Positions 2,390 to 31,205 of a stretch of 32,000 nt of DNA are shown piece after piece. Source of the stretch: Candidatus Electrothrix sp. GW3-4 (GTDB lineage: Bacteria; Desulfobacterota; Desulfobulbia; Desulfobulbales; Desulfobulbaceae); contig NZ_CP147990.1 of the NCBI RefSeq assembly GCF_037902255.1, positions 4,380,001 through 4,412,000 of the forward strand. Reading direction: 5' to 3'. Numbering within the stretch: position 1 is the first letter of the stretch; every line of letters starts with the position of its first letter. The notes beneath the pieces were generated by a model. It was given only the letters and a program-made list of their open reading frames with translations, made no database searches and was not told where the DNA came from. The translations under genes and the position numbers were made by a program.

Positions 2390-2425
2390 CACAGCAACGT
2401 GTCCTGTCTTTTGAGGTAACGACGT

Positions 2426-13959: not shown

Positions 13960-15465
13960 ATGAGGATACTTCTTGATACGAATATCTTGATCCCGTTGGA
14001 GGATTCTTCCAAGGCTCTGCATGATAGTTTCTCAGAGTTTGTTCTTTTGGCACATTCAAATGAACATTGTCTCCTTGTACATCCAAGTTCTCGTGACGAC
14101 ATTCAGCGTGATCGCAATATAACTCGCCGAGAAATCAGTCTATCACGATTTAAAAAATATTCTCTGCTGTCTCCTTCACCAGCTCCACCCACAGAAGTTG
14201 AATTAGCATCATACCACCTCAGGCAGGACAACGAGAATGATCGAGTAGATAACGAAATTCTCTTCTCGATATTCCGTAATGCTGCAAATATATTAGTCAC
14301 TGAGGATAGAAAACTCCATCGGAAAGCGAGCAGGATGGGGTTATCAAACAGAGTTCATTATCTTCAGCAGGCGGTTGCTTTTTTAAGGCGTCTACACGCC
14401 GTTATTCCAATTACACTGCCGAATATTGAGGAAGTTCCTCTTTATCAGCTTGACCTTAATGATTCTTTTTTTGATTCGTTAAGGGAAGATTATGATGGTT
14501 TTAATGAATGGTACGAAAAGAAAGCAAGAGACGGGCGTCGATCTTGGATACACAGAAACCCTCTTGGGAAAATGGGTGCCGTCTGTATATTTCACATCGA
14601 AAATGATCCTATATTGACAGATGACCATCGGAGTATCCCGGGAAAAGTATTGAAATTGTGTACCTTCAAAGTCGGGGGATCTGTACGAGGACGGCGAGTT
14701 GGAGAATTATTTTTAAAAGCAGCTTTCCGGTATGCATTTGAGAATAAAATAGAACATATCTATCTACATACCCGTGCTGAAAAACAGGAGTTTCTTATAG
14801 ATTTTTGCCGAGAATTTGGATTCCGCCATTTTGGCGAGTATAAAAATGATGAGGTATATGTAAAAAAGCATCCTCATGAGCCACCCGTAGATTCCAATAC
14901 AGACCCTGTTGAATATCATAGAAAATTCTTCCCGCATTTTATGGCAGGCAAGGTGATCACCAAATATATTATACCGATCCAACCAAAATATCATAAAATT
15001 CTCTTCCCAGACGGCCAAGTTCAATCACTTCTTCCATTTGGAAATGCGGGAACGGGTCAAGTGGTTGGTAATGCGATACGGCAGGCTTATCTTTGCCATG
15101 CGAGGATTGGCGGAATAACACCTGGAGATATCGTACTGTTCTATAGGTCAAAGGATCAAAAATCTATTACTTCTGTTGGAGTTATAGAGAAGGTTGGTGA
15201 CTATAGTAGCTTTGAAGACATCGTTCAGATCGTATCGAAAAGAACGGTCTACTCTCATAAAGAAATAGGTGAGATGGCGAAGAAGAAAACGAAAGTTATA
15301 CTTTTTCGTCTTGTTCAGCATCTCTCAAATCCTATTTCGATTAAATGGCTTGAGAAAAATGGTCTAGTAAAAGGCCCCATTCAGACTATAAGAAAAATTA
15401 AAGATGAATCATTTGTCGAGATTATTAAAAAAGGAGGGATCACGAATTGCCTTCTTGCCGATTAA
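13960..15465 (+). CDS. Three-domain fusion protein: N-terminal PIN-like nuclease, central GNAT acetyltransferase, C-terminal PUA-like (ASCH/EVE-type) domain
   Basis: A 501-aa ORF in an AT-rich island. The PIN motifs are MRILLDTNILIPLED (D6, E14/D15), VDNEILF (D97) and ILVTEDRKL (D116). GNAT motif A is VRGRRVGELFLKAAFRYA (14683-14712 and following), then HIYLHT and FGFRHFG. The PUA-like motifs are IIPIQPKYHKILF and GDIVLFYRSKDQKSITSVGVIEKV. Domains were called by motif only. Confidence 0.75.
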   Translation: MRILLDTNILIPLEDSSKALHDSFSEFVLLAHSNEHCLLVHPSSRDDIQRDRNITRREISLSRFKKYSLLSPSPAPPTEVELASYHLRQDNENDRVDNEILFSIFRNAANILVTEDRKLHRKASRMGLSNRVHYLQQAVAFLRRLHAVIPITLPNIEEVPLYQLDLNDSFFDSLREDYDGFNEWYEKKARDGRRSWIHRNPLGKMGAVCIFHIENDPILTDDHRSIPGKVLKLCTFKVGGSVRGRRVGELFLKAAFRYAFENKIEHIYLHTRAEKQEFLIDFCREFGFRHFGEYKNDEVYVKKHPHEPPVDSNTDPVEYHRKFFPHFMAGKVITKYIIPIQPKYHKILFPDGQVQSLLPFGNAGTGQVVGNAIRQAYLCHARIGGITPGDIVLFYRSKDQKSITSVGVIEKVGDYSSFEDIVQIVSKRTVYSHKEIGEMAKKKTKVILFRLVQHLSNPISIKWLEKNGLVKGPIQTIRKIKDESFVEIIKKGGITNCLLAD

Positions 15466-16408
15466 ACCACAATTCGCTAGCAAAATAGTAAAAGGTGAAA
15501 AACTTTTTGAGTACCGTAAACGTATATTTAATGAAGATACATCTTGTATTATTATTTATTCGTCATCTCCTGAAAAGAAGATTGTAGGTGTCGCAAAAAT
15601 CAATAAGATATTGGAAGGAGCACCGACCAATATCTGGGAAAAAACAAAAAAACACTCTGGAATAACCAGAAAATTTTTCCGAGAATATTTCCTTGGAGTC
15701 AAAAAGGCCTCTGCGATTGAATTGACAGAAATATATCCCCTGAAGGTTCCCTTGAGTCCTTTTCAAATTCAAGAAGGATTTACTATTCCTCAATCGTTTT
15801 GTTATGTTGACTTGTCTTTTCTGGAGAAAGTTATCTGTTCTGGAAACTGTGTCTTTCCCTCTCTTAACAGCAAGAGTGTGGTCTTAATCGGTGGGATACA
15901 TGGTGTTGGGAAAACGACCATTTGTAAAGAGATCTCAGATCAAGAAAATATTGTCCACTTAGTAGCAAGTGAGCTCATTAAGGGTAAGTTGAACTGTGTC
16001 GCTGGTACAAGTGCTTCTTCTGAAAAAAAAGTTCGTAACATAAAGGACAATCAAGAACTCTTGATATCTGCATTAGATGAAATAACTCTACCTGGTGGTA
16101 GATTTATCCTAGATGGTCATTTTGTTCTTTTTAATAAAAATGCAGAAATTCAGAAGGTACCTCTTACTACCTTTGAAAAAATAGAACCAGATAAGCTTGT
16201 CGTAATAACAGGAGAACCCAAGATCCTTCAGAAAAGATTACACAAACGAGATGGCAAAGTATATCCGGTTGAAAAATTGAAGGAAATGCAGGAGCAGGAA
16301 GTTGAATATGCCTCTATTGTTGCCGAGAGACTTGGTATTCCTTTAAAGTTAATAGGATTCGACGACAAAGTGGCAATTGCCGACTTTATAAACAATAAGT
16401 CAGCTTGA
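15404..16408 (+). CDS. ASCH-domain / P-loop nucleoside(nucleotide)-kinase-like fusion protein
   Basis: The N-terminal ASCH pattern is FLPIKPQFASKIVKGEKLFEYRKR, then CIIIYSSSPEKKIVGVAKINKI. The C-terminal Walker A is GGIHGVGKTT (15890-15916), followed by ILDGHF and a lid-like LQKRLHKRD as in adenylate/AAA_18-type kinases. The start is uncertain. ATG 15404 has no SD and overlaps gene A by 62 nt. A strong AAAAAGGAGGG (15427-15438) lies 8 nt upstream of an in-frame ATT at 15446. Confidence 0.75.
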   Translation: MNHLSRLLKKEGSRIAFLPIKPQFASKIVKGEKLFEYRKRIFNEDTSCIIIYSSSPEKKIVGVAKINKILEGAPTNIWEKTKKHSGITRKFFREYFLGVKKASAIELTEIYPLKVPLSPFQIQEGFTIPQSFCYVDLSFLEKVICSGNCVFPSLNSKSVVLIGGIHGVGKTTICKEISDQENIVHLVASELIKGKLNCVAGTSASSEKKVRNIKDNQELLISALDEITLPGGRFILDGHFVLFNKNAEIQKVPLTTFEKIEPDKLVVITGEPKILQKRLHKRDGKVYPVEKLKEMQEQEVEYASIVAERLGIPLKLIGFDDKVAIADFINNKSA

Positions 16409-16740: not shown

Positions 16741-18309
16741 ATGATGCACGATACAAAAAACAACCTGTCTCCCAAAAAATCGGCAATCCTTGCTGCCCTG
16801 CTCGCTGTCCCTCTCTTTCTCTCCCCATTACCCGCTATCGCCCAAACCGACAGCAGTCTCAGTGAGTTGGATGCCGTCCTTGAAGGCTTTGAGGAGGAGG
16901 CAACAGAGCAGGCCCCTGCGAATGAGCTGGATTCAGTACTGGATGGCTTTGACGATGAAACTGGTGACCAGTCTGCTGAGCCTTCATCGGATCAGGGACT
17001 TGATGCCGTGCTGGGTGGTTTTGAGGAGGAGGGGCAGACCGAGGTCCAGGCAGAGGCTGAAGGAGACTCCTCCTGGCTGCCGGGCTGGCTGAGTATAGAC
17101 GGCTGGCTCCAGTTTGGCACGACCTATAATATGGCCCATGATGCCCCGGCAGAGGGAGAGACTGATTGGCGGGGCTTTTCCAAGGCCCGTACTGATCTCC
17201 AGCTCGACCTTGAGGCCCGTTTTTCTGATTCCTGGTCGGCAAAGATAGGAGGAAAGGCCTTTTACGATGGGATCTACTCGCTGCAAGGCCGGGAGGAATA
17301 CACCAGCTCTGTCCTGGATGAGTATGAGGATGAAGTGGAATTGCGTGAAGCCTATGTGCAGGGTAAGCTCACGGACAAGCTGGATCTCAAGTTTGGTCGC
17401 CAGATCGTGGTCTGGGGAAAATCAGATAATATCCGGATCACCGATGTGCTCAACCCCCTGGATATGCGCGAGCCCGGCCTGACCGATATTGAAGACCTCC
17501 GTCTCCCCCTGGCCATGACCAAGCTGGATTATTATTTCGGCAACTGGCAACTCTCTGGTATGGCCATCCACGAGATCCGCTTTAACAAGACCCCGGTCTA
17601 TGGTTATGATTTTTACTCCTTTGACGAGCCCATGCCCCCGGCCGACGAACCGGCCAACACCCTGGAAAACAGCGAATGGGCCCTCTCTATGAGGGGGATC
17701 TTTACCGGTTGGGATCTGGACCTCTATTATGCTCGTATATTCAATGATAGTCCTCATCTGGAATATACCCTGGTCGACGACGAGCCCACAGATATACGGC
17801 AAAAGCACGAGCGCTTGCACATGTTTGGCTTTGCCTATAATAAGGCCTTGGGTAACTGGTTGCTGAAGAGTGAAGGGGCCTTGCTGAACCGGGTCCATTA
17901 CACCAATCGACCCGGTAAAGGTTATACCCGTATTGATGGGCTTGTGGGGGTAGAATATTCAGGATTTGCTGAAACCTCCATTGGCCTGGAACTTGCCAAT
18001 CGGCATATCAATAATCACCGCCCCTATTTGGAAGAATCCCCAGACGGTGTGCTCCAGGATATGTATCAACTGGCCTTTCGTTATACCAGGAATTTTCTCA
18101 ACGAGACCCTGAGTCTCAGCCTGCTGGCGATGCTCTATGGTCCTTCCGAGGTTGACGGCGCCTTTGAGCGGCTGTCTCTGGAATACGACCTGACCGATAC
18201 CATCACTCTGCGCGGCGGCGCAGTGCTCTATCAGTCCGGTGATCTCTTGACCATGCAGGAGGTTGGGGAGAATGATCGGCTGTTTGCCGAGCTTCGCTAT
18301 TCTTTTTAA
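16741..18309 (+). CDS. Outer-membrane beta-barrel protein, DUF1302-like
   Basis: The signal peptide ends PAIA|QTD. An acidic repeat region follows. The block LKFGRQIVVWGKSDNIRITDVLNPLDMREPG resembles the DUF1302 signature. Amphipathic strands alternate along the rest, and the C-terminal ...AELRYSF ends in Phe, as is typical of OMPs. Confidence 0.7.
   Translation: MMHDTKNNLSPKKSAILAALLAVPLFLSPLPAIAQTDSSLSELDAVLEGFEEEATEQAPANELDSVLDGFDDETGDQSAEPSSDQGLDAVLGGFEEEGQTEVQAEAEGDSSWLPGWLSIDGWLQFGTTYNMAHDAPAEGETDWRGFSKARTDLQLDLEARFSDSWSAKIGGKAFYDGIYSLQGREEYTSSVLDEYEDEVELREAYVQGKLTDKLDLKFGRQIVVWGKSDNIRITDVLNPLDMREPGLTDIEDLRLPLAMTKLDYYFGNWQLSGMAIHEIRFNKTPVYGYDFYSFDEPMPPADEPANTLENSEWALSMRGIFTGWDLDLYYARIFNDSPHLEYTLVDDEPTDIRQKHERLHMFGFAYNKALGNWLLKSEGALLNRVHYTNRPGKGYTRIDGLVGVEYSGFAETSIGLELANRHINNHRPYLEESPDGVLQDMYQLAFRYTRNFLNETLSLSLLAMLYGPSEVDGAFERLSLEYDLTDTITLRGGAVLYQSGDLLTMQEVGENDRLFAELRYSF
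16864..17031 (+). repeat. Three intragenic copies of an acidic 12-aa motif (ELDAVLEGFEEE / ELDSVLDGFDDE / GLDAVLGGFEEE)
   Basis: Read directly from the translation of residues 42-97 of the 16741..18309 product. The copies are separated by acidic linkers of 8 and 12 aa. Confidence 0.8.
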
Positions 18310-18382: not shown

Positions 18383-19096
18383 CTACTGGATCTTGACCTC
18401 TTTTACCACCGGTTTCGGCATATCCTTTCTCGGCATGGTCACGGTCAGCACCCCCTGTTGAAAGCTCGCCTTGATCCCCTCCTGGTCAGCGTCTTCCGGT
18501 AAGGAGAGCACACGCTGAAAAGAACCGTAAAAGCGTTCCTGCCGGTAATAGTCCTTGTCCTCTTCCTTTTTCTCCTGCTTCTTCTCACCGCTGATGGTCA
18601 TGACATTATTGGCCACTTCGATCTTGATATCGTCTTTTTCCGCGCCAGGGACCTCGACGGTGATGGTGTATTCCTTGTCATTTGCAGCGAGATCTGTAAC
18701 CGGTCGGAACATCCCGCCGGAAGTATGCTGAAACGGCCTGTCCATATCAAACGCGGAAAATCCGAAATCGCGGAAGGTCTGGTCAAAGAGCCGATTAATA
18801 TCGCGATGAAAATCCCGCAAGGGACCAGCAAGTTCATCCTGGTCTTCTTTACCGTCTTTCCGTTGAATAGGCACCTTGTTGCCGCTTTTCTCTTCCTCTT
18901 TGCTGAACCAGTTCCAGGGAGACCAATTTTTCTCCTCTGCCTTCTGGTCCGGCTTGGTGTTTTTCTGTTCTTTGGTGATCACGTCTGGAGAATTTGCCGA
19001 CTCGGCGGCATAACTCAGCGGCGTTATTGATGAGATGAGTGTCAGTGCTGTTATTCCTGTCAATACCCATGCCTTTGTTTGCATTCGCCCATTCAT
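18383..19096 (-). CDS. Hsp20/alpha-crystallin family protein with an N-terminal signal peptide (predicted periplasmic small heat-shock protein)
   Basis: The RBS is GGAGG, 7 nt upstream of the ATG. The N-terminus MNGRMQTKAWVLTGITALTLISSITPLSYAAE has a basic n-region, a hydrophobic core and an A-x-A-like site. The C-terminal alpha-crystallin domain is FRPVTDLAANDKEYTITVEVPGAEKDDIKIEV...ISGEK...ERFYGSFQRVLSLPEDAD...GVLTVTMPRK. Confidence 0.85.
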   Translation of the reverse strand: MNGRMQTKAWVLTGITALTLISSITPLSYAAESANSPDVITKEQKNTKPDQKAEEKNWSPWNWFSKEEEKSGNKVPIQRKDGKEDQDELAGPLRDFHRDINRLFDQTFRDFGFSAFDMDRPFQHTSGGMFRPVTDLAANDKEYTITVEVPGAEKDDIKIEVANNVMTISGEKKQEKKEEDKDYYRQERFYGSFQRVLSLPEDADQEGIKASFQQGVLTVTMPRKDMPKPVVKEVKIQ

Positions 19097-19340: not shown

Positions 19341-19778
19341 TCAGTTGACCTTCACCTCAATCTGCTTGGGTTTGGCCTGCTCCATCTTGGTCAGGGTCAG
19401 GCTGAGTACCCCGTTTTTACAGGCCGCCTCGACCTTATCCACATCCACATCCTGGGGCAGGGTGAAGGTTCTGATAAAGGTACCGTATCTGCACTCGTTT
19501 CTGTGGACCTTTTTGTCCTTATCATCACCCTTCTTTTCCCCTTTGATGGTCAGAATACGGTTGTCGATACCAACCTGGACATCATCTTTTTCCACTCCAG
19601 GGAGTTCAACCTTTAAAACAAATTCGTTGTCTGTTTCAAGGATATCGACGACAGGTGCCCAGTCGCCAGTTTCAACAGATTCGTTGTCTTCAGCGGTTGA
19701 TTTTCTTCTTGCGGGCATTGTGTAGGTGTTCAACAATGCCTCCATCTCACGAAAAGGATCCCAAATACTGACGTTCAT
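19341..19778 (-). CDS. Hsp20/alpha-crystallin family small heat-shock protein (cytoplasmic type)
   Basis: The RBS is AAGGAGGG upstream of ATG 19778. The domain reads WAPVVDILETDNEFVLKVELPGVEKDDVQVGIDNRILTIKGEKK...RYGTFIRTFTLPQDVDVDKVEAACKNGVLSLTL. There is no signal peptide. Confidence 0.92.
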   Translation of the reverse strand: MNVSIWDPFREMEALLNTYTMPARRKSTAEDNESVETGDWAPVVDILETDNEFVLKVELPGVEKDDVQVGIDNRILTIKGEKKGDDKDKKVHRNECRYGTFIRTFTLPQDVDVDKVEAACKNGVLSLTLTKMEQAKPKQIEVKVN

Positions 19779-20321: not shown

Positions 20322-21014
20322 TCAAAACAAGAGGGCAAAGTTGAGAAAGAAGCTTTCGGTAGATCCTTCAAGATCTTCTTCAGAATAGGTGATATATCGG
20401 TCGTATGTATAGTAATAGTTTAGACTTGCCGTACCTTTTGTTTCGAGAACCCGAAAACCAATGGATGAAGAAAAGGTCATATATGGATTGACCTTGAAAT
20501 TTATACCTGTCACGATCCCTAATCCATATTGGACAAAATCGTACTCTACATCGTAGGGATAACCATATTCATCGAAAACCGTATCGCCTTCGCCGCTGTG
20601 GGCACTGAGATGGAGCAATGGGCCCAGCCACCAACGGAAAGAGGGGGCTTGGACTAAGGAAAAGGCAAAGATGTTTTCCATAGTGATTCCGACTAAATCG
20701 AGGTCGTTGTTGAACTCGTCCTCAAGTTCCTTGCCTTCAAGCCCGATATTCAGGCGGTAGTTGAAGAATGATGGAACGGTAGGGTTGGCAGGAGCGGTAT
20801 CCAGGACAAAGCCTACGGCTGCGGTATTCATGTCGATATCAAACTCCTCGCCGGAACGATCCCATTCCAGGGTTCCTGAGCCAGTGGATATATCAAGATA
20901 GGGGCCCATGGAGAGGGCCTCGGCGCGAGGAATGAAGGTTCCCCAAAAAGCTGTGAGCATCATTGCGATGAAGAATATTTTTGGTAGGGATAATGCTTTA
21001 CTCAATCGGGCCAT
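20322..21014 (-). CDS. Small outer-membrane beta-barrel protein
   Basis: The signal peptide is MARLSKALSLPKIFFIAMMLTAFWGTFIPRAEA|L. Aromatic and polar residues alternate in strand-like segments. The C-terminus FFLNFALLF ends in Phe. Confidence 0.7.
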   Translation of the reverse strand: MARLSKALSLPKIFFIAMMLTAFWGTFIPRAEALSMGPYLDISTGSGTLEWDRSGEEFDIDMNTAAVGFVLDTAPANPTVPSFFNYRLNIGLEGKELEDEFNNDLDLVGITMENIFAFSLVQAPSFRWWLGPLLHLSAHSGEGDTVFDEYGYPYDVEYDFVQYGLGIVTGINFKVNPYMTFSSSIGFRVLETKGTASLNYYYTYDRYITYSEEDLEGSTESFFLNFALLF

Positions 21015-21088
21015 TTTTCTCTCCTTGTTTCTTTATCGTTTATCGGTAAAAAAGAGGGGCTGTTGCCGCTCAACAGGGCTGGCTAAAT

Positions 21089-21319
21089 TCAATACAACTT
21101 CTTCGCGTCTTCCAGGTAGGTCTGAATAGTGTTGATATCATCTGCGGTTAGTTTAAATTCATAATCGCATCCGGTGCATTTTATGTGTTTGTCCGGGGTC
21201 AGCACCTCTGAAGGCATTTTGGTTACGGTTGAACAGTTGCCGCAGGTTATGACAAGTGCTGCGTTGAAATCATCATCTATTTCAAAGTCGATTTTGGGTG
21301 TTGCAGGTTGGTTTTCCAT
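21089..21319 (-). CDS. Small zinc-ribbon protein (CxxC...CxxC)
   Basis: The 76-aa product contains CGNC and CTGC 23 residues apart (ITCGNCSTVTKMP...HIKCTGCDYEF). The gene sits 44 nt downstream of the REC-TIR gene on the same strand. Confidence 0.6.
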   Translation of the reverse strand: MENQPATPKIDFEIDDDFNAALVITCGNCSTVTKMPSEVLTPDKHIKCTGCDYEFKLTADDINTIQTYLEDAKKLY

Positions 21320-21363: not shown

Positions 21364-22218
21364 TTAGAGGGATAAGATTTTTTTTATGGAAAAGCTGAGC
21401 GAGCGAATTTGATCAGCTCTCTTGTCTGCTGATGTAAGATCTACACAGTGCATGGAGCTGATTTGGCGAGGCACTTCTGTTGGTTGTATGTTATACAGAA
21501 CAGGGATAATGAAGAAGCTGTTGCCGTCGCGTTTTTTTCTGTTAAAGGCCTGGATAATTTCTTGCTTCATATAATCAGATCGCAGGGTATCCTGAGTGAG
21601 GATCAAAAGAAATATTTTGCAGGTATTGATTGCTTCCAGTAAGATAGGACGCCATATATCATCTGCTAACAACTCTGCGTTTTCACAGCTTGATCCTATA
21701 TTATTTTTCATAAACTCATCTCTTAAGAATGAAGCGAGTTTTTCGTTCGCAGATGAATGACTTATGAATATATCCCTCTCTTCTACTTTAATCTTTGCCA
21801 GTGGGGCGTTATTGTATTCTGAGATATTTCGGGCAATATTGACATGTCGTTTTACGGAAGAGAGAAATTTTTCTTCGGAAAAAGGTTTGATCAGATAGCT
21901 GTCCGCGCCTTTAGAGTAAAATTCTGCGAACTCATTTGGTGATAAGCGACCTGACATGATAATAACCTGTGTTCGCTTTCTCTCTCTTGTTAACAACTCC
22001 AGCAGCGCAACACTCTCTTCCTTTGTCCCGTCTTGTAAGTAGATGTCGAGTAAAACAAGATCGACTTCCCGTCCTTGCGAGGAAAAGGTGTCCAGGACGT
22101 TCTTTGCTTCTTCGGCAGAGGTAAAAAAATGAACGTCGAATGTCTTTGAATCAAAAAGCTTTTCAATAAGTTTATGGACGAATTTGCTATCGTCAACTAC
22201 AACGACTAAATATTTCAT
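21364..22218 (-). CDS. Response-regulator receiver (REC) domain fused to a TIR domain
   Basis: The REC has the acidic pair VVVVDDS (D9/D10), the phospho-acceptor LVLLDIY (D58, codon 22047-22045), IIMSG (S89) and LIKPF (K111). The TIR has DIFISHSSANEKLASFLRDEF, then KIFLLILTQDTLRSDYMKQEI. E220 (codon 21561-21559) aligns with the catalytic Glu of the W-x-x-x-E motif in RPS4 (WCVRE) and SARM1 (WVHKE). Confidence 0.8.
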   Translation of the reverse strand: MKYLVVVVDDSKFVHKLIEKLFDSKTFDVHFFTSAEEAKNVLDTFSSQGREVDLVLLDIYLQDGTKEESVALLELLTRERKRTQVIIMSGRLSPNEFAEFYSKGADSYLIKPFSEEKFLSSVKRHVNIARNISEYNNAPLAKIKVEERDIFISHSSANEKLASFLRDEFMKNNIGSSCENAELLADDIWRPILLEAINTCKIFLLILTQDTLRSDYMKQEIIQAFNRKKRDGNSFFIIPVLYNIQPTEVPRQISSMHCVDLTSADKRADQIRSLSFSIKKILSL

Positions 22219-22510
22219 CGACGCCTCACAAGTGTGGATTCTCCCCGTCTGTATACCTTTCGGATGCTTTTTGATATGCTCTTAAAAAGTTGACCCTTCT
22301 TACGCGTATATTGGTTTTTAAAGACTAAAATGCTGGCCTTGAAAAGTAAACAGAAAATCTTGTTTATGATGGGAAAAAGGGTGAATATTGAGGAGGGAGG
22401 GGAAAAATCTCGCTGAAAAGGTGCATGCTGGCTTTGATTCGGAATTGCTGAAATACAAAACCGGGCCATGCGCTCCCCTGGCACCGACCCGGCAAGAGAG
22501 AAGATATTTA

Positions 22511-23065
22511 TCAGTTACAGGTTAAATCACATGGTACACGTCGCTTAACGACTGCTCCGGTATATGTGTCTACTGTTTCATCATGGCAACCTTTTCCGGG
22601 AACAGAAACTCGTCTCAGAAGTTCGCCCGGTGCCACCCTGTTCTGGCATAATAATTTTCCAGCGTTATCATTGCAGGCTGGTCCGGTATCAGCATAGGCA
22701 AAGTGGAAAATTTCATTAAACGCGATTGGCTGAGAAAAGGTTTTTAGACCTACCCAACGAAACATGGCAGGAGATTTAGTTCTTTCAATCTTAAGCAAAA
22801 CGTCTCCTGATGCACAAACGATAGCTCCTACATGCATATCACTGCTGTTTTTAATAGAAAAAAAATTTCCTTTGCTACACTCATAATTTCTTTCCCATAA
22901 TTCGTTTTGCTCAATCGCCATTTGGGACGTACCAAACGGAGCACCAATTTTTTTTGAATGATAAAATTCCCAAAAAGTAGGAATTGAGCATGCAAGTGCA
23001 GTAAAAATAAGAGGATATATCAAGGATCGTAGGTGCCATTTTGTGGAAGTTTGTTCCGTTGCCAT
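22511..23065 (-). CDS. Hypothetical membrane-anchored or secreted Cys-containing protein
   Basis: I place the start at ATG 23065, behind AAGGAGGAG; the track's longer start at 23122 is less likely. The N-terminal hydrophobic helix is LRSLIYPLIFTALACSIPTFW. I recognise no family. Confidence 0.6.
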   Translation of the reverse strand: MATEQTSTKWHLRSLIYPLIFTALACSIPTFWEFYHSKKIGAPFGTSQMAIEQNELWERNYECSKGNFFSIKNSSDMHVGAIVCASGDVLLKIERTKSPAMFRWVGLKTFSQPIAFNEIFHFAYADTGPACNDNAGKLLCQNRVAPGELLRRVSVPGKGCHDETVDTYTGAVVKRRVPCDLTCN

Positions 23066-24131
23066 ACTGTTCTCCTCCTTACGTAAGTTTTCTTGTAGGT
23101 CAATCGCTCGGTGTAACGACAAGGTATGTCACTTTGCCTTTTATGATAGCAAAGAGTCATCTTTGAAATTATTGTCTTTTTTTATAAGCTATTGTAAGAG
23201 AAGGTAACTGGTGTTACGCTCTGTATTCGGGGCCATGAACAACGGGTCCCTGAGAAAATTCAATCCTTGTTCCACCTTTTGCTGATCTTTATACGTCTCT
23301 TGGGTAACAGGCGGCCAGCATTCTTTTAAAACCCAACGCCCATTTTTAAAAAAGAGAGGCCTATTTTGAAAAGGTGAGTGCCCGCTTTGTACCGTAGCAT
23401 GATAGGTTGCTTTGTTGAACAGGCTGATGTCTATTGTAGACTTGCCTAGAATATATAGAACATGCTCCTGTAAACGTAGTCAATCGAAAAAACATTATAT
23501 CAGGGTGTTAAGAATGATTCAGATTCCCAGGATTCCTGAATTTCATTGCGAGGCAAGCAAAGAAATTCGTTCTTTGGCCCCAAAAAAACGTTTAGAGGAA
23601 AGTGCTCGGCGAGGTCGATTGTTTCCCGCTTTTTTTGGGGACATGCCTGGCAATGGGCATTAACGCCGCATCGAAACAGCGGAAAAGAGCGTGCCATGGG
23701 GTACGACGAGTAAGAAAATGACGAAAATACAATGGGAAACGGCTTGTCGGCAAGGGGTGGGAATTCTATAAAAAGCGCTCCCCCCCGGCCTGCGGCCGGG
23801 ACCAAACTTCCAAATAACAACAATATAAATGTGTTGTTACTTAGAAGGATAACCAGCAGGCAGTGATCCTCTATTATTGCTCTCGTAAATTTGACAGCAG
23901 TAATTTTGAGGCCTATTATTGGAGGGGTATGGCCTTTGTTTCGCTGCAAGAGAATGGATTCGCCGTATCTGATATGAAGTAAGGGTATGGAGAGCGCTAT
24001 GAGAGATCTGCCCAGAGGGCCTGCGACCTGGGGGGGAGGATGCCTGCAAGCAGTATCGTAAGATGAAGAGATGAGGTCACTGGGCCAGACGATTTTTTCA
24101 CAGCCCTTTGCATTGAATATGTTTTCTTTGT

Positions 24132-24932
24132 ATGACAAGACGATCAGAAAGAAAGATCCCAGCTGATACTGTTACGGACCCAGAGGATGTCCCGGCCCTC
24201 TTGGCCCGTTCCCTGTGCAAGCAGTATAAAGGTACTGAACACCCTGCCTTGGATAATCTCGACCTGGAGGTAGAAAAAGGAGAGTTCTTTGGCCTGCTCG
24301 GTCCCAACGGGGCCGGAAAAACAACAGCTCTGTCCATCTTCAGCGGTCTCTTTCCCCCGGACAGCGGCACCCTTCAGATTGCAGGTAAACAGTTTGGCAA
24401 TCAGAACAAGGCAATTAAACAGCGCTTCGGTCTTGTGCCCCAGGAAATCGCCCTGTATGATAACCTGACCGCGCAGGAGCATCTGGTCTTTTTCGGCAGA
24501 CTACACGGACTGAGTAGGGAACGACTGTGCAAGCAGGTGGCCAGCTGTCTGGAGCTTGCGGGCTTAGTTGATCGGGCCTCCTGGCTGGTGAACACCTATT
24601 CCGGCGGCATGAAACGGCGCCTGAACATCGCTGCAGCCCTGCTTCATGAACCAGAGATCCTGTTTCTTGATGAACCCACCGTCGGTGTTGACGCCCAATC
24701 ACGCAATATGATCCATGAACAGTTACAAGCGGCCAATCAGGGTGGGACAACGATTATCTATACCAGCCATTCCATGGACGAGGCCCAAAAACTCTGCACC
24801 CGTATCGGTATTATCGATCAGGGAAGGATTATCAGGCAGGGGGTACCCACAGACCTGATTGCGGAGAAAGGCCTCAATAATCTGGAAGAACTCTTCCTCC
24901 AGTTGACGGGCAGGCAGCTGCGGGACGCATGA
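24132..24932 (+). CDS. ABC transporter ATP-binding protein (ABC-2/DrrA-like subfamily)
   Basis: The motifs are Walker A GPNGAGKTT, signature YSGGMKRRL, Walker B ILFLDEPT and an H-loop TSHSMDE. The ATGA overlap at 24929-24932 joins it to the permease gene. Confidence 0.92.
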   Translation: MTRRSERKIPADTVTDPEDVPALLARSLCKQYKGTEHPALDNLDLEVEKGEFFGLLGPNGAGKTTALSIFSGLFPPDSGTLQIAGKQFGNQNKAIKQRFGLVPQEIALYDNLTAQEHLVFFGRLHGLSRERLCKQVASCLELAGLVDRASWLVNTYSGGMKRRLNIAAALLHEPEILFLDEPTVGVDAQSRNMIHEQLQAANQGGTTIIYTSHSMDEAQKLCTRIGIIDQGRIIRQGVPTDLIAEKGLNNLEELFLQLTGRQLRDA

Positions 24933-26227
24933 TGGTGAAGCTCTGGGCCGCTGTAAGCAAGGAACTCCTGCTCCTCTGGCGGGATCGGGCAGGTCTGGCT
25001 GTCCTCTTTCTCATGCCGGTTATCCTGGTGGTGGCCATCACCCTGGTGCAAAAAAACGTTATGGAGTTGACCGGGCAGAGCAAGGCCCGGTTGCTCATGG
25101 CAGATCTGGACAAAGGCTCCTTGGGCAAGGCTTTATCTGCCTCTTTAGAGGAGGGCCATGTTGCGGTTATCTGCCAGGATGGTGAGGAAACAGGGCTAGA
25201 GGATATTCGGGCCGCAGTCCTGGAGGGTGATTTTCAGGTCGGCATCGTCGTTCCTGCTGGTTCTTCAAAGCGTCTGTACGAGGAGGCCACAGCCCTCTTT
25301 ACCGAGAGTGAGCAGGTTGCCCTGGAGGGCAAGCTCGCTCAGATTCCTATTTTTCTTTTTTTTGATCCAGCGGTAATGCCCGGTTTTCGCACCGGCCTAA
25401 CTGCCCAGCTGCGGATGGCCCTGGAACGGGTGGCCATGCAGGCCAAGGTCGAGCAGCTGCAAAGGGAATTGGCAGAACAGACCAATATCATGCTCCCCTG
25501 GCCCGTTGCCGCAGGGCCCTCAGGAAAGCGTATCGCAACCGTTTTTGATCAATCTTTATTTGAGATCACCGATCCCGCTTCTTCCGAATCTTCAGGACAG
25601 GAAAAGGAGGCCTCGGAGTATAACCCAGTGCAACAGAACGTACCGGCCTGGGCCCTCTTTGGTATTTTTTTTACGTCTATTCCCATTGCAGGCGGTCTCC
25701 TGCAGGAGCGAAGGAGCGGTATCCAACTTCGCCTGAGCACCCTGCCGGTCTCGACCGTTCTCCTTCTCACTGCCAAGGTCCTGGCCTATCTGGCGGTTTG
25801 TTGTTGCCAGTTTTTCCTGATTACCCTGATCGGGGCCCATCTCTTTCCCCTCCTGGATCTTCCGGCCTTTTCCCTGGGATCGAATTTCCTGCCCCTCCTC
25901 ATCGTTATCCTGTTGACTGGTCTGGCTGCCTGCGGTTACGGTATTTTTCTAGGAACCGCCTGCCGGACCTATGAACAGGCATCCACCCTGGGATCAACCA
26001 CAGTTGTGGCAGCTGCAGCCATCGGCGGGGTGATGGTACCGGTCTATGCCATGCCCCAGATCATGCAGCGGCTCAGTATTCTCTCTCCTTTAAACTGGGG
26101 CCTGACCGCCTTTCATGATATCCTCTTACGAGGTGATTCGCTGGTCAGGGTAGGGGATGATCTGCTTCGCCTGGGATGTTTTTTTCTTTTGACCGTCCTG
26201 CTGGCCTGGAAACTGACCCGTCCCTAA
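24929..26227 (+). CDS. ABC-2-type transporter permease
   Basis: The protein is 432 aa. One N-terminal TM is followed by a soluble loop of about 200 aa and then five to six C-terminal TM helices, as is typical of ABC-2 membrane proteins. It is translationally coupled to the ATPase. Confidence 0.8.
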   Translation: MMVKLWAAVSKELLLLWRDRAGLAVLFLMPVILVVAITLVQKNVMELTGQSKARLLMADLDKGSLGKALSASLEEGHVAVICQDGEETGLEDIRAAVLEGDFQVGIVVPAGSSKRLYEEATALFTESEQVALEGKLAQIPIFLFFDPAVMPGFRTGLTAQLRMALERVAMQAKVEQLQRELAEQTNIMLPWPVAAGPSGKRIATVFDQSLFEITDPASSESSGQEKEASEYNPVQQNVPAWALFGIFFTSIPIAGGLLQERRSGIQLRLSTLPVSTVLLLTAKVLAYLAVCCCQFFLITLIGAHLFPLLDLPAFSLGSNFLPLLIVILLTGLAACGYGIFLGTACRTYEQASTLGSTTVVAAAAIGGVMVPVYAMPQIMQRLSILSPLNWGLTAFHDILLRGDSLVRVGDDLLRLGCFFLLTVLLAWKLTRP

Positions 26228-26285
26228 GCGCTCAAGGTCAGGCAAGGCTTGGCAAGGGACTCCTTTTAACGGTATAATGTGAAGT

Positions 26286-26564
26286 ATGATAACTAACGCC
26301 TTTGAAAAAGAACTGTTTGATTTGATTTGTACAACCTGCAAACTGGATGATATTGACCCGGACACAGTTGCCAATACCGATCCTTTGATTGGGCCGGAGT
26401 CACCCCTGGGCATTGATTCCATTGATGCCCTGGAAATCGCGGTGACTGTACAGCGGGAATATGGCGTGCGCATGGATTCGGAAAATACCAGCAGGACGGT
26501 CCTGCAATCTTTAGCCACCCTGGCTGAGTATATCCGGCAAAGCGATGGAGCAGGAGAGCGATGA
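26286..26564 (+). CDS. Acyl-carrier-protein-like phosphopantetheine-binding protein
   Basis: The 92-aa acidic protein carries the carrier-protein motif LGIDSIDALEI, with Ser as the attachment site. The ATGA overlap at 26561-26564 joins it to the next gene. Confidence 0.8.
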   Translation: MITNAFEKELFDLICTTCKLDDIDPDTVANTDPLIGPESPLGIDSIDALEIAVTVQREYGVRMDSENTSRTVLQSLATLAEYIRQSDGAGER

Positions 26565-27862
26565 AGATTCTGCTTGTCAACCCACCCAATTGCGGACGCA
26601 GCATCCCGGAAGAACGCTACGGGATCACTTCTGTCAAACAGATTTTTCGGGGCGAGCCCCTTGCCCTGGAGGAGTTGGCAGGAAACCTGCTGGAGCACGA
26701 TGTTCGTATCCTGGATCTGAAGGCGGAGCCGGAGGACCTAGAATCTATGTTGGCAGAGTTCCAACCCGATCTGGTGGGTATCACCGGTTTGACCTGTGAG
26801 GCAAATACCATGCTTTTTCTTGCTGGGCAGGTCAAAGCGCATGGTCAGCCCTTGGTGGTCGTGGGCGGGATTCACGCCAGTAATGATCCGGCCTTTTTCA
26901 ATCAGGCAACCATTGATTATATTATTGTTGGCTTGGGCAAGAGAACCTTTGCTGAGCTCATTGCCTGTCTGCTCAGCGAGGAAGAGGTTGTCATCCCCGG
27001 TGTCATTGCCACCAATCCAGGTGGGGAAATCCAGGTGCCGGACTATCGCTGTTATCGCTACACAGCTGCTGATATTATGGAGGAACTGCCCCCGGCTTAT
27101 GACAAGGTAGCGCAATACCGTTCCCATTATATCCTGGAAAAGCTCAAGGTGACCATGGGCTTTGTCGCCTCGGCCTATGGCTGTCCCCATCGTTGCTCCT
27201 TTTGCTCCATTAAGGGCCAGACCCATGGCAGGTACCTGACTAAGTCCATTGCTGCGGTGTTGCGGGAGATCCAACTCCTGCCCGATATCCCGGTGATCCG
27301 CTTGGTAGATGCCAATACCTTTGGCGATATTGAGCGGGCCAGGGCCTTAGCTGAGGCCTTGAAGGACTCAGGGCTGCGTAAACAATACCTTGCTGATATC
27401 CGTTCTGATACCGTTGTCCGTTATCCAGACTTGCTCAAGAGTTGGAAAGAGGCCGGGCTGCGAGCCGTGGTCATCGGTTTTGAGGAAATAGATGATCAGC
27501 GGCTGACCGCCATGAACAAGGCCAATCGGGCAGATATCAATACAGAGGCTGTGGCTGTGCTCAAGGAGCTGGGGATCACCGTAGTAGGCGATTTCATCAT
27601 TGACCCTCAATATGAGGAAAAGGATTTTCTTCGCCTTGATGCCTATCTTGAGAAGGTCCAGATTGATTTACCCATGATTACGGTGATGACACCGCTGCCA
27701 GGCACTGAACTCTATCAACAGCAGCAGGATCGGATCATCAATCATGATCTTGATTATTACACCCTGACCAATGCCGTCACTGCAACGCGGCTGGCGGAAA
27801 AGGAATTCTATACATTTTATGCGGAGCTTATCCGAAAAAGTCATGAGCATGCGAAGATATAA
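26561..27862 (+). CDS. B12-binding-domain radical SAM enzyme (class B rSAM)
   Basis: The N-terminus MKILLVNPP...VGITGLT...VVVGGIHAS is typical of the B12-binding domain. The CxxxCxxC cluster is YGCPHRCSFCS. The RBS AGGAGAG precedes the ATG. Confidence 0.88.
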   Translation: MKILLVNPPNCGRSIPEERYGITSVKQIFRGEPLALEELAGNLLEHDVRILDLKAEPEDLESMLAEFQPDLVGITGLTCEANTMLFLAGQVKAHGQPLVVVGGIHASNDPAFFNQATIDYIIVGLGKRTFAELIACLLSEEEVVIPGVIATNPGGEIQVPDYRCYRYTAADIMEELPPAYDKVAQYRSHYILEKLKVTMGFVASAYGCPHRCSFCSIKGQTHGRYLTKSIAAVLREIQLLPDIPVIRLVDANTFGDIERARALAEALKDSGLRKQYLADIRSDTVVRYPDLLKSWKEAGLRAVVIGFEEIDDQRLTAMNKANRADINTEAVAVLKELGITVVGDFIIDPQYEEKDFLRLDAYLEKVQIDLPMITVMTPLPGTELYQQQQDRIINHDLDYYTLTNAVTATRLAEKEFYTFYAELIRKSHEHAKI

Positions 27863-27865
27863 AGG

Positions 27866-29002
27866 ATGAATGCGTTTATAACAGCGGTTTCTGCCTTTCT
27901 GCCCGGTGAACCGGTGGGAAATGATGCCCTGGATGCGTATCTGGGAAAGACAGACAGGATATCGGCCAGGACCCGACAGATGATCTTGGCTGGCAACGGT
28001 ATTCAAACCAGATATTATGCCATTGATCCGGCAACAGGGGAAACCACCTTTACCAATGCCCGCCTGGCAGCCGAGGCCGTGCGCGCTTTAGGGATTGATA
28101 TAGAAAAACTGGAATGCCTCTGTTGCGGTACTTCTTCAGCGGATCAGCTTATGCCTGGCCATGCCTCAATGGTACATGGCGAGCTAGGAGGAGGGCCCTG
28201 CGAGGTTATCTCCACCAGCGGGATTTGCCTGAGTGGAATTACTGCAATGAAGTACGCAGCCCTGTCTGTGGCCTTGGGCATGAGCACCGCAGTGGCCACC
28301 GGATCGGAACTGGCTTGCACCTATATGCATCAGGATTTCTTTCAAGCTGCGGCTGAGAAAAAACAAAAAGACAATGGTGAAAAACAGCGCCATCCAGCCT
28401 TCTCTTTTGAAGCAGATTTTCTTCGTTGGATGCTTTCTGATGGGGCAGGGGCTGTACTCATTGAGCCCGAGCCTGCAACGGGGCAATTGAGTTTGCAGAT
28501 TGACTGGATTGAGCTGACTTCTCATGCCCATGACTTGGAAACCTGTATGTACGCTGGTGCTCTCAAACAGGAAGATGGTAGCCTTGTGGGATGGCGGGAG
28601 TATCTGCGAGCTGGTCGCCAAGACGGGATTTTTACAGTGAAACAGGATGCCCGTTTACTGAACCGTGAGATAATCAGAGTTATAGTGGAAGAGAGCCTTT
28701 CGCTCGTTATTTCCCGGCATGGCCTTAAACCTGAAAGTATTGATTGGTACCTCCCCCATTATTCATCGGAATTTTTTCGGGAACCACTTAAAGAGGGACT
28801 TCGGGATATCGGTTTTCCTTTGCCCGAGGAAAAATGGTTTACCAATCTCCACACCAAGGGCAATACCGGATCAGCCTCATTCTACATTATGCTGGAAGAA
28901 CTTTTCTCTTCAGGAAAACTGCGGGCGGGAGACCGCATTCTTGGGATGATCCCGGAAAGTGGCAGGTTTTCTGTGGGCTGGGTGCTGTTGACAGTCGTAT
29001 GA
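27866..29002 (+). CDS. KAS-III (FabH)-like ketosynthase / thiolase-fold condensing enzyme
   Basis: A Cys-His-Asn triad is inferred from TSGICLSGITAMKYA (Cys), LPHYSS (His) and HTKGNTGSASFYIML (Asn; compare the GNTSAAS motif of FabH). The start is 3 nt after the rSAM stop. Confidence 0.85.
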   Translation: MNAFITAVSAFLPGEPVGNDALDAYLGKTDRISARTRQMILAGNGIQTRYYAIDPATGETTFTNARLAAEAVRALGIDIEKLECLCCGTSSADQLMPGHASMVHGELGGGPCEVISTSGICLSGITAMKYAALSVALGMSTAVATGSELACTYMHQDFFQAAAEKKQKDNGEKQRHPAFSFEADFLRWMLSDGAGAVLIEPEPATGQLSLQIDWIELTSHAHDLETCMYAGALKQEDGSLVGWREYLRAGRQDGIFTVKQDARLLNREIIRVIVEESLSLVISRHGLKPESIDWYLPHYSSEFFREPLKEGLRDIGFPLPEEKWFTNLHTKGNTGSASFYIMLEELFSSGKLRAGDRILGMIPESGRFSVGWVLLTVV

Positions 29003-29070
29003 GATGGATGTTGCATCGTATATGCAACAGGGCTCTTGTGGTAGGTAAAGAGTATCCGTATGGGCGAGAG

Positions 29071-29119
29071 ACCAGGAAGGGCCTTCCGGGTACAGGAGGT
29101 GTTTTTTTGTCTTTTTTCT
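29071..29119 (+). terminator. Hairpin(s) followed by a long T-rich tract downstream of the KAS-III-like gene
   Basis: accaggaagg-g-ccttccgggt is an imperfect palindrome, with an alternative pairing CCTTC...GGAGG. The tract tgtttttttgtcttttttc follows at 29100-29119. The stem geometry is ambiguous. Confidence 0.4.
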
Positions 29120-29419
29120 TGCTATCCCGATGAAAGGGCGTGGAAAGCTTTTTGTTGTACGGTTTGTACGTGGACGTGCTAATGCTTGGTATTGTTTTTG
29201 CAAGGACCTCTCTGGGGTATTAAAGAGCTCCCTGCTTTTTAGGCCTCAAGGAGCATGCATTCTGTTCTGATACATTGCGTTGCATAGTGGGATGAAGAGA
29301 GTTGTTAGAGGATTGATAAAAGTGTATATGAGAATGTTTACGCTCGTTATATTATTAGGTTGGAGCGACGATTCTCTTCATCAAAAGACTCTGAGGCATG
29401 AATTAGAATAGAACCAGTT

Positions 29420-30229
29420 GTGAAATCAGATAGGATGCATGACGGCGTTAAACGTTTTTTGAGAAAAATAGGCATGGTTCTTCGCGCCTGCCTATCGCGG
29501 CTCAGCCCTTCTAAGGAAGCTTGCTGCTCAGCAGATTCCTATACCGTAGTTGCACCGGTCAGTATGGTCAGGGTTGGGGGACATCGTTACTCGCAACGGG
29601 TGCATATCCTCGTCTATGGCCAAATTGATCCTCCAGATCCCGAGGTTGAAGTCCAGGTAACCTTTCAAAGTCATCAGCTGGATCTTGACTCCAGTGGTCA
29701 GGCCCGGCCGGTAACAACCTTGACTGATCAGGCAGGTGAGTTTGTTGTTGATGAAAATTTTATCTGTGGCCCACAGGTGAAATTTATCACCAGTGTTACC
29801 TCCCTTCCCGGCATTGATGCCCCAACAGTTATCGCCTCCTTACCTTTAGAAAAAGAAACAGAGGGTGGCTCGAAAAAATGTGACTCCCGGGAACCCAAAG
29901 AGCCATTACCTCCGGCCACGATTACCATTGATTTTGAATCACATTGCCAACGCGAGGTTACCTATTGGTTTGAAAATCCCTATAAGAAAGGAACCATCTC
30001 ACGGACCACGGAAATTGCCTATTGTCCAACAGGTTCCTCTGCGCTGTATCTTAAACTCTGTCCTTATAAGGAGAAACATGCGAGTATCATAGATGTTTTT
30101 ACGACGACTGAGGAGCATCCTGTCCCCCGCTATCAACGAGTGCATCCAGCAAGAACGGATGAAGAATTCACCCGTATTGCCATATTCGGTCCTGATGCAA
30201 CATTGAAGTCTGCCCTCATTCTTGTGTAA
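29420..30229 (+). CDS. Hypothetical protein (no family recognised)
   Basis: A 269-aa ORF starting at GTG; alternative ATG starts are at 29435 and 29474, and none has a strong SD. The central part looks beta-rich. I saw no recognisable motifs. Confidence 0.55.
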   Translation: MKSDRMHDGVKRFLRKIGMVLRACLSRLSPSKEACCSADSYTVVAPVSMVRVGGHRYSQRVHILVYGQIDPPDPEVEVQVTFQSHQLDLDSSGQARPVTTLTDQAGEFVVDENFICGPQVKFITSVTSLPGIDAPTVIASLPLEKETEGGSKKCDSREPKEPLPPATITIDFESHCQREVTYWFENPYKKGTISRTTEIAYCPTGSSALYLKLCPYKEKHASIIDVFTTTEEHPVPRYQRVHPARTDEEFTRIAIFGPDATLKSALILV

Positions 30230-30425
30230 CCGAATAGTTTTCTTTGTTTTCCCTTTTGTTTTTTCTGTAAACAGGATAAATTTTGAATCGTTATTCAAAA
30301 TATCGGACAGGATAAGACAGAAGAGCGGATTCTGTGTCCAGGAAAGGCGCATCGAATACATCGGCTGGTTATATTCTGTTGTGAATCTCCGCCTCATCCT
30401 CTTGTTGTTGAGTTAAGCAGGGACC

Positions 30426-31205
30426 ATGGATGCAACTAATCGTATACTTTGCCCGATTCCAGACGACGAACGAACCCCGTTTGTTGATGTCTTGTTGAAG
30501 TTTATTGACTGGCAGAAGGTGCGTATTGACAACGCAGAAGAGGAGAATGAGCGGCTGCAAAAGGAGATTAACAAGCTGCAAAAGCAAGCGCTCAGTGAGA
30601 GAGAGCAAAGACCCTTTAAGAGCATTGCCAACAAGAAGATAAAAAGAATACCAAAGCGCAGCAAGGTTTTTGCCCCTATCAAAATCCAGCAACAGGACCC
30701 TGTAAAACCGGAAAACGTACAGCAGTTGTTGGTAAAGAATATTCAACAACTGCTGGTGAGTATCGGCAGTAAAAACAAGCGCCAATTCACTCGGCTACAT
30801 ATTCATTTAGATGCTAATTTGGATTTTGGCGCACAGCGCTATTACAGACATGCTGTAGAGAATATCAGTCTTGGCGGCCTTTATGTGCGGGGAGATTTTA
30901 AGCAGCAGTTGGGGGATATTTGTACAATCAGTCTCAATCAGTCAGAACTTGACGCTACTCTTGAGATTCACGCCACCTGTTCAGTGATCAGGAGCAGCGA
31001 ACAGGGGATAGGGCTTGAGTTTATCTCTATGAAACTGGATGATTTTTGTCATTTGCAAACCGTTCTTCTCTATCAGGCCGATGATCCTTTTGTTCTGGGG
31101 ACGGAATTTGTCAATAATATGAACCTGGAATTGGAAAACGACCTCATCTTATGTAAGGCCTTTCATTTTCATCGAGATAGGGACGTAGAAAGGGGCGTTG
31201 GCTGA
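30426..31205 (+). CDS. PilZ-domain protein (predicted c-di-GMP receptor) with an N-terminal coiled-coil/basic region
   Basis: The PilZ signatures are RQFTR (RxxxR) followed by ENISLGG (D/N-x-S-x-x-G) about 26 aa later. The N-terminal region is a heptad-like stretch, EEENERLQKEINKLQKQALSEREQ. Confidence 0.75.
   Translation: MDATNRILCPIPDDERTPFVDVLLKFIDWQKVRIDNAEEENERLQKEINKLQKQALSEREQRPFKSIANKKIKRIPKRSKVFAPIKIQQQDPVKPENVQQLLVKNIQQLLVSIGSKNKRQFTRLHIHLDANLDFGAQRYYRHAVENISLGGLYVRGDFKQQLGDICTISLNQSELDATLEIHATCSVIRSSEQGIGLEFISMKLDDFCHLQTVLLYQADDPFVLGTEFVNNMNLELENDLILCKAFHFHRDRDVERGVG

Follow-up and report, generated by a model that had tools for sequence, protein, structure and literature searches.

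What does a two-component receiver control when its output is not a DNA-binding domain but a TIR domain of the kind found in NAD+-cleaving enzymes? This question is raised by a minus-strand gene at 21364..22218 of a 32,000-nucleotide stretch of Candidatus Electrothrix sp. GW3-4 (contig NZ_CP147990.1; the whole stretch is called the window below). The gene product is a two-component response regulator that carries a TIR output instead of a DNA-binding domain, and it is referred to here as REC-TIR. An original prediction, made from the sequence alone, had described it as a phosphorylation-regulated TIR and probable NADase, within a defence framing. The reading preferred here is that REC-TIR is a phospho-gated catalytic TIR, which would serve in Electrothrix as a fixed chromosomal signalling or stress output; as a combined statement, it is given a probability of about 0.5.

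Domain architecture and conserved residues

The gene starts with ATG and encodes 284 amino acids followed by a stop codon, which is supported by the open reading frame (ORF) itself, Pfam matches to Response_reg and TIR_2, orthologues, and AlphaFold2 modelling. The receiver (REC) domain occupies residues 5-122 (21853..22206, minus strand) and the TIR domain residues 150-272 (21403..21771, minus strand). According to Pfam, both domains score above their cut-offs, with an E-value of 5.8e-16 and 59.1 bits for Response_reg (cut-off 30.2), and an E-value of 5e-15 and 56.5 bits for TIR_2 (cut-off 28). The fusion proposed originally is therefore real, as judged by the hidden Markov model and structure searches that had been suggested, and the stated absence of a DNA-binding output domain is confirmed, with none found by Pfam. 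NCBIfam reports sub-threshold matches only, to receiver domains of ordinary response regulators. The full-length AlphaFold2 model has a predicted local distance difference test (pLDDT) value of 87.5 and a predicted template modelling (pTM) score of 0.82, the linker at residues 131-147 being weaker. Database labels of REC-TIR proteins are either "response regulator" or "TIR domain-containing protein", and the literature searched, which left most subscription journals outside its reach, yielded no description or test of a receiver-TIR response regulator.

The receiver contains the full phosphorylation set, namely, D9, D10, D58, S89, Y108, and K111 (which is part of a KPF motif), and all of these residues are invariant in 29 Electrothrix sequences. 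This includes every position of the complete receiver that had been claimed earlier (the DD pocket, D58, S89, and K111). The phospho-acceptor D58 is encoded by the GAC codon at 22045-22047 (minus strand). Apart from Pfam and the invariant residues, the receiver assignment is supported by Foldseek, which matches the full-length model to receiver structures, PleD among them, with template modelling (TM) scores of about 0.8 on the target. The matches of the full-length model were limited to receiver types, as its two flavodoxin-like domains confound the search, and a TIR-only AlphaFold2 model was made to obtain TIR-specific ones.

The TIR-only model has a pLDDT of 88.5, and its best PDB matches reported by Foldseek are the TIRs of SARM1, L6, RPS4, RUN1, and SPARTA, with a probability of 1.00 for SARM1, L6, RPS4, and SPARTA. 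The scaffolding TIRs MAL and MyD88 are matched as well. Besides Pfam TIR_2 and this model, the TIR assignment is supported by a HMMER alignment to the TIR of flax L6 (3ozi), in which the segment SDYMKQEI is placed against SKWCLMEL. The putative catalytic E220 (codon GAA, 21559-21561, minus strand) falls on a Glu of L6 at chain position 110 by count, which we take to be E135 of L6, the residue that serves as catalytic Glu in plant TIR NADases. Regarding the earlier claim that SDYMKQEI represents the W-x-x-x-E motif with its catalytic Glu, the position of the Glu holds, but the aromatic residue is a Tyr and is variable. The Electrothrix motif is thus Y-x-x-x-E, with Tyr in 27 of the 29 sequences.

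A profile search of 1.84 billion representative proteins returned about 20 further clusters of about 290 amino acids, matched over their full length at 20-35% identity, and a second search added about 15 more. The family is rare, and this wider set comes from Candidatus Sumerlaeota, Kiritimatiellia, and metagenomes. In an alignment of 67 sequences, comprising the 29 from Electrothrix and 38 distant relatives (20-35% identity between the groups), D58, K111, and F151 are present in all members, S or T at position 89 and R148 in 66 each, and E220 in 65. The joint retention of D58 and E220 across the family is the strongest argument for a functional switch together with a functional catalytic centre. 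Poor conservation of E220 among homologues, which had been named as evidence that would speak against the original prediction, is not what these sequences contain. Some members are longer (P0053, P0054, P0058, P0095, P0128, and P0168, 420-570 amino acids) and have an extra N-terminal TIR_2 stretch, resulting in a TIR-X-REC-TIR layout.

Inheritance and genomic contexts

REC-TIR is kept by all marine cable bacteria (Candidatus Electrothrix) sampled. Close homologues form about 30 clusters at the 90% level, all with both domains and with 65-82% identity to the window protein, and their named sources are all Candidatus Electrothrix except for one labelled Desulfobulbus sp. US4. Eight Electrothrix loci were inspected, i.e., the window, L001, L002, L004, L005, L006, L010, and L011. 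L010 and L011 are the true orthologues among the matches listed by a genome-contig scan, the rest being unrelated response regulators; an apparent match of 22% identity in the same scan (L014) was dropped, as it spans a stop codon.

In comparison with the window copies, the identity of REC-TIR (75-82%) tracks that of flanking core genes such as DUF1302 (77-86%). The values for L002 are 82% for REC-TIR versus 86% for DUF1302 and 88% for the ABC ATPase, and those for L010 are 75% for REC-TIR versus 77% for DUF1302. The median pairwise ratio of nonsynonymous to synonymous substitution rates (dN/dS; Nei-Gojobori, 8 Electrothrix orthologues) equals 0.13 for the receiver, 0.15 for the TIR domain, and 0.20 for the linker; purifying selection acts on both domains, and the TIR is as constrained as the receiver. 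According to tblastn, REC-TIR has no plasmid match, and the phage search gave a receiver-only match and no full-length one. No tRNA, Rfam family, or long repeat that would bracket the gene or mark a mobile element was found in the scans, and a metagenome scan with the pattern RTxRDVF[LF][SIC][YH], which is too narrow, returned only the query's own contig. Because of the roughly 30 clusters, the identity that follows the neighbours, the low dN/dS, and the lack of plasmid or full-length phage matches, REC-TIR looks in Electrothrix like a genus-wide, vertically inherited gene and not a patchy mobile module.

The surroundings of the gene are of four kinds. In the window, L002, and L004, REC-TIR has an ABC-2 transporter/radical-SAM lipid cluster on one side and a DUF1302 gene on the other, and L010 has the same zinc-ribbon and DUF1302 side. 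It is located between sdhA and DUF1302 in L005 (with insertion sequence elements nearby), between ispH and dapF in L006, and between a hydrolase-family gene and a TonB/ExbBD cluster in L001. The zinc-ribbon gene is a 76-amino-acid CxxC...CxxC ORF (21089..21319, minus strand) that starts 44 bp after the REC-TIR stop codon; it has two CxxC pairs and sub-threshold Zn_ribbon Pfam matches only, without a family assignment. It is found directly downstream of REC-TIR in 5 of the 8 loci (window, L002, L004, L005, and L010), the copies in L002, L004, L005, and L010 having 64-75% identity, and is missing from L001, L006, and L011. Homologues of the protein occur in Electrothrix only.

A consensus scan reports a terminator-like hairpin 3' of the zinc-ribbon ORF at 21060-21076 (21050..21076 with the T-tract, minus strand), which consists of CTGTTGAGCGGCAACAG followed by CCCCTCTTTT and is a pattern match only; the same scan finds no such site between REC-TIR and the zinc-ribbon ORF. 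Judging from this arrangement, the two genes are probably co-transcribed, and that the zinc-ribbon protein modulates the TIR domain is no more than a guess. As for the 5' side of REC-TIR, the intergenic region (22219..22510, minus strand) contains GAGG 7-10 nucleotides before the ATG, and a sigma-70 scan gave 0 minus-strand sites within it, so that no promoter was identified there. The flanking ORFs, one of 203 amino acids with a transmembrane segment and a Cys-rich region (22511-23122, minus strand) and one of 230 amino acids with a signal-peptide-like start (20322-21014, minus strand), belong to no family and have 0 tblastn matches in the seven other Electrothrix loci. The REC-TIR/zinc-ribbon pair therefore sits among strain-specific fillers.

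Among the window ORFs scanned, a single histidine kinase was found, a hybrid protein with the layout Cache-HAMP-PAS-GAF-PAS-HisKA-HATPase-REC (5834-9775, plus strand), 11.6 kb from REC-TIR, in agreement with the earlier note. It was rejected as the cognate kinase: several unrelated genes lie between, nothing links the pair, and the fetched flanks of the other Electrothrix loci contain no kinase either.

Regarding defence-type neighbours, a low-G+C island (0.36-0.40) at 13960-16408 (plus strand), 5 kb from REC-TIR, contains two overlapping genes with matches to PDC-M11, a candidate defence system of PADLOC. M11A is matched over its full length (E-value 1e-142) and has Pfam GNAT and sub-threshold EVE matches. 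M11B is matched over its N-terminal 143 amino acids (E-value 5e-44), with a sub-threshold ASCH match, and continues into an AAA_17 kinase-like C-terminus. L004 also contains the PDC-M11 pair, next to a RhuM gene, and a restriction-modification pair lies 2 kb from REC-TIR in L006. With about 16 genes viewed per locus, defence genes near Electrothrix REC-TIR are not clearly in excess over chance.

The neighbourhoods of distant members were taken from 7 loci (L007, L008, L009, L090, L091, L092, and L094, the last being fragmented by frameshifts), among which 1 has a linked kinase, 3 have a motility or secretion setting, and 1 has a defence-type setting. In L009, a metagenome-assembled genome of Sumerlaeota, the genes flhA, flhF, flhG, fliA, a 126-amino-acid receiver, a GAF-HisKA-HATPase_c kinase, and REC-TIR follow each other on one strand. 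The string from fliA through the cheY-like receiver and the kinase to REC-TIR (5302-7894) closes the flagellar cluster, and REC-TIR begins 20 bp downstream of the kinase. In L091 (6672-7873) and L092 (226-1639), REC-TIR is preceded, at a distance of 18-29 bp, by a standalone gene for an MshEN domain; this domain binds cyclic di-GMP (c-di-GMP). The two REC-TIR proteins belong to different 50%-identity clusters and are <50% identical to each other, and in L091 a divergent T2SSE/T2SSF/GspH cluster adjoins the MshEN/REC-TIR pair. A ThsB-type TIR gene, a SLATT/DUF4231 gene, and a 146-amino-acid ORF are located directly upstream of REC-TIR in L007, and the neighbours in L008, L090, and L094 are uninformative. 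As regards the neighbourhood survey proposed originally, the loci inspected give a linked kinase in 1 of 7 distant loci (L009) and none in the 8 Electrothrix loci. The placement of homologues in motility or developmental operons, regarded at the time as contrary evidence, is seen in part: 3 of the 7 are flagellar/chemotaxis or MshEN/type-II-secretion-like, and 1 is ThsB-TIR/SLATT.

Proposed mechanism and competing explanations

The proposed mechanism follows from established receiver behaviour, with PleD as the example, and from that of TIR enzymes, and Detocs adds a precedent for REC gating. PleD is controlled via phosphorylation-driven dimerisation, and TIR enzymes such as SARM1, plant TIRs, TIR-STING, and SPARTA have assembly-dependent active sites. 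In REC-TIR, a histidine kinase encoded elsewhere would phosphorylate D58, which would alter the alpha4-beta5-alpha5 face of the receiver and promote self-association, as in other receivers. Self-association would gather the TIR domains and form a competent active site around the putative catalytic E220, and the assembled TIR would then cleave NAD+, leading either to local NAD+ consumption or to an ADP-ribose-derived signal. Phosphorylation of D58, activation through oligomerisation, the identity of the substrate as NAD+, and the physiological role are all inferred; the phospho-gated catalytic mechanism, taken alone, appears fairly probable. In Electrothrix, REC-TIR looks like a fixed chromosomal output, often co-transcribed, as it seems, with the zinc-ribbon protein, rather than a mobile anti-phage module. 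Given the mechanism, the odds between an endogenous signalling or stress role and anti-phage defence are about even.

Several observations weigh against the preferred reading. Neither a kinase nor a second receiver gene adjoins REC-TIR in any of the 8 Electrothrix loci (0/8 for both), and no SLOG, Macro, SAVED, or SIR2 receptor for a TIR-made signal is present among the window ORFs scanned. The aromatic residue 4 positions before E220 varies across the wider family (W in 5 of the 38 distant members), and 2 of the 67 members, Ca. E. laxa and P0047, have Gln at the E220 position. Candidate defence genes occur within a few kb of REC-TIR in some Electrothrix loci. The genomic contexts also change from lineage to lineage, and thus no single role is indicated. 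Finally, REC-TIR has a low G+C content in every Electrothrix locus (0.335-0.447 versus 0.45-0.48 locally), which extends to third codon positions despite the vertical-looking inheritance; low G+C is typical of accessory genes. The G+C content of distant homologues matches the local composition. For the whole window gene it is 39.5%, versus 48.2% for the window, and not about 33%, the value counted earlier in one line of the sequence.

In comparison with known systems, REC-TIR most resembles, in its predicted function, DtcC of Detocs and the sensor-gated TIR NADases. Detocs is a three-gene operon that encodes a sensor kinase (dtcA), a stand-alone receiver (dtcB), and a receiver-effector (dtcC); DtcC is a REC fused to a PNP ATP nucleosidase, so that REC gates a toxic enzymatic effector, and the effector types include PNP, REase, TOPRIM, and transmembrane ones, TIR not being listed (Rousset et al. 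2023 preprint, doi 10.1101/2023.01.24.525353). Like DtcC, REC-TIR combines a receiver at its N-terminus, which contains the phospho-acceptor Asp, with an effector that degrades nucleotides (TIR catalysis being predicted here), and has no DNA-binding domain. The logic would also be the same, with phosphorylation releasing a potentially toxic enzyme. In contrast to Detocs, the effector is a TIR, dtcA and dtcB genes are not adjacent in any Electrothrix locus, and REC-TIR looks genus-wide and vertically inherited, whereas Detocs is patchy. Because dtcA and dtcB genes are lacking and TIR is not among the reported effector types, REC-TIR is not Detocs by membership, and the earlier statement that it is not canonical Detocs, having no adjacent kinase or second receiver gene, is correct. 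PADLOC gives no Dtc-named match to REC-TIR, the presence of Detocs models in its library being unverified. The 126-amino-acid receiver of L009 was considered as a Detocs-like buffer receiver and rejected, as the CheY equivalog model recognises it with 170.6 bits and its gene comes after fliA.

As for TIR-STING of CBASS, SARM1, and the TIR-APAZ protein of SPARTA, they share with REC-TIR the TIR fold with a catalytic Glu and are among its best sequence and structure matches. In these systems, a fused or partner sensor controls assembly-dependent NAD+ cleavage. The control modules differ: REC-TIR has a His-Asp receiver, whereas TIR-STING, SARM1, and SPARTA have a cyclic-dinucleotide receptor, an ARM domain that senses nicotinamide mononucleotide (NMN) and NAD+, and an Argonaute, respectively. 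Similarly to PleD (REC-REC-GGDEF) and CheB (REC-methylesterase), REC-TIR carries a canonical receiver on a fused, in this case putative, enzyme, the difference being the TIR output. Such an architecture is to be expected from the recombination of known modules.

REC-TIR also has a TIR_2-type bacterial TIR like those of Thoeris ThsB and the PADLOC candidate PDC-S66. Unlike Thoeris, however, it has no ThsA-like neighbour, and its ThsB_TIR Pfam score is 13.2 versus a threshold of 21.2 bits; for these two reasons REC-TIR is not Thoeris by membership. ThsA-type SIR2, SLOG, and Macro domains are absent from the window ORFs scanned, and the PADLOC matches to ThsB are weak (E-value 6e-4 or worse). The best PADLOC matches of the TIR domain are PDC-S66, an Argonaute-associated TIR, and ThsB. 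The top one, PDC-S66, aligns only residues 122-252 (linker and TIR) with positions 125-252 of a 282-position profile (E-value 3.8e-5), the overall length of the profile being similar to that of REC-TIR (284 amino acids). On distant family members, PDC-S66 has E-values of 4e-11 and 7e-12, again for the TIR part only.

The defence matches bring in the possibility that REC-TIR is a Detocs-like effector of anti-phage abortive infection: an unlinked kinase would sense infection and phosphorylate the receiver, and the TIR would deplete NAD+ and stop growth. This explanation draws on the Detocs precedent for REC gating a toxic effector, on the defence TIRs among the best PADLOC matches, on PDC-M11 in the window and L004, the restriction-modification pair in L006, and the ThsB-TIR and SLATT genes in L007, as well as on the low G+C content in all Electrothrix loci. 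It is nevertheless rather unlikely, given that the gene is genus-wide, vertical-looking, and under a dN/dS of 0.14, without the patchiness or fast evolution usual for defence genes. In addition, no dtcA-like or dtcB-like gene is adjacent in any Electrothrix locus, there is no plasmid match and no full-length phage match, several distant homologues have motility or secretion contexts, and TIR is not among the Detocs effector types in the preprint (doi 10.1101/2023.01.24.525353). The defence framing of the original prediction is therefore a poor fit in Electrothrix, although PDC-M11 in the window and the ThsB-TIR/SLATT setting of the distant locus L007 speak in its favour.

The motility and secretion contexts might suggest another explanation, in which the protein has no catalytic activity and acts within a motility, secretion, or c-di-GMP network, either as an adaptor whose TIR is an assembly module or as a phosphate sink that drains a phosphorelay. 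It would agree with the Sumerlaeota homologue at the end of the flhA-flhF-flhG-fliA-cheY-kinase string, with two homologues (<50% identical) each placed after a standalone MshEN gene, one of them beside T2SSE, T2SSF, and GspH, with the Foldseek matches to MAL and MyD88, and with the non-conserved W of W-x-x-x-E. However, 65 of 67 members, from very divergent lineages, retain the Glu, which speaks against a pure scaffold, since retention would not be anticipated in such a protein. Catalytic TIRs are the top matches both by structure and by sequence, and the TIR domain is as constrained as the receiver, so this explanation seems improbable. The absence of a linked kinase in Electrothrix would also fit a kinase-independent receiver, i.e., a switch that responds to a nucleotide or another ligand, or a cRec-like hydrolase that processes the TIR product. 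In the literature, some receivers of conflict systems are proposed to be kinase-independent, and cRec domains are linked to the processing of 1''-2'' cyclic ADP-ribose (cADPR). In contrast, no residue of the canonical phosphorylation set is missing from REC-TIR (in Electrothrix, this extends to the S89/Y108 switch pair), its score for ordinary Response_reg clearly exceeds the threshold, and one homologue is directly coupled to a HisKA kinase, which makes a kinase-independent receiver very unlikely.

A further reading keeps the catalysis and changes the purpose: REC-TIR would be the output of a housekeeping His-Asp pathway, with the TIR making an NAD+-derived messenger or tuning NAD+ to control behaviour, not immunity. 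This seems doubtful at present. If true, its role in Electrothrix could be in filament-level stress, motility, or cell-fate decisions of a multicellular bacterium, other phyla would pair REC-TIR with chemotaxis kinases and MshEN c-di-GMP receptors, and bacteria would have a phosphorelay-driven TIR signalling pathway outside immunity, the first of its kind. The bacterial TIR enzymes known so far depend for their activation on modules that sense phage, such as cyclic-nucleotide receptors, Argonautes, and STAND NTPases. With a phospho-gated catalytic TIR, wired to a two-component receiver, NAD+ cleavage or NAD+-derived signalling would be linked with the signal-transduction system most common in bacteria. 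The apparent fixation of REC-TIR in a multicellular, electrically conductive genus, together with purifying selection on both domains, suggests that TIR chemistry may serve ordinary physiology too. Likewise, the fixation in a multicellular lineage and the motility and c-di-GMP links elsewhere leave room for non-immune TIR signalling, which would be notable if true. Since REC-TIR is a small single polypeptide in which one residue, D58, stands out as the switch and one, E220, as the catalytic residue, the hypothesis is directly testable in vitro, and the kinase and REC-TIR of L009 provide a ready-made putative cognate pair for experiments.

Other features of the window

Tandem genes for HSP20 small heat-shock proteins are located at 18383-19096 and 19341-19778, both on the minus strand. 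In the 237-amino-acid HSP20, the N-terminus resembles a signal peptide and a long spacer rich in Lys and Glu precedes the alpha-crystallin domain, features that suggest export of this small heat-shock protein. The pair is also found in L002, and not in L004, L005, or L010.

The plus-strand cluster at 24132-31205 comprises an ABC-2 transporter, a small ORF similar to acyl carrier protein (ACP), a B12-binding radical SAM protein, a KAS-III-like protein, a 269-amino-acid ORF, and a PilZ-domain protein. Synteny extends to L002 and L004, both of which have the ACP-like ORF, and the cluster probably encodes a pathway for lipids or a secondary metabolite, close to a c-di-GMP receptor. Two MMPL/RND-type transporters and a LolA-like protein are encoded at 15-5670 (plus strand), at one end of the window, and a DUF1302 protein is encoded 11 kb beyond them at 16741-18309 (plus strand), with the hybrid kinase, a pirin, a P-type ATPase, and the PDC-M11 island in between. 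The MMPL/RND, LolA-like, and DUF1302 families look related in the handling of outer-membrane lipids or lipoproteins.

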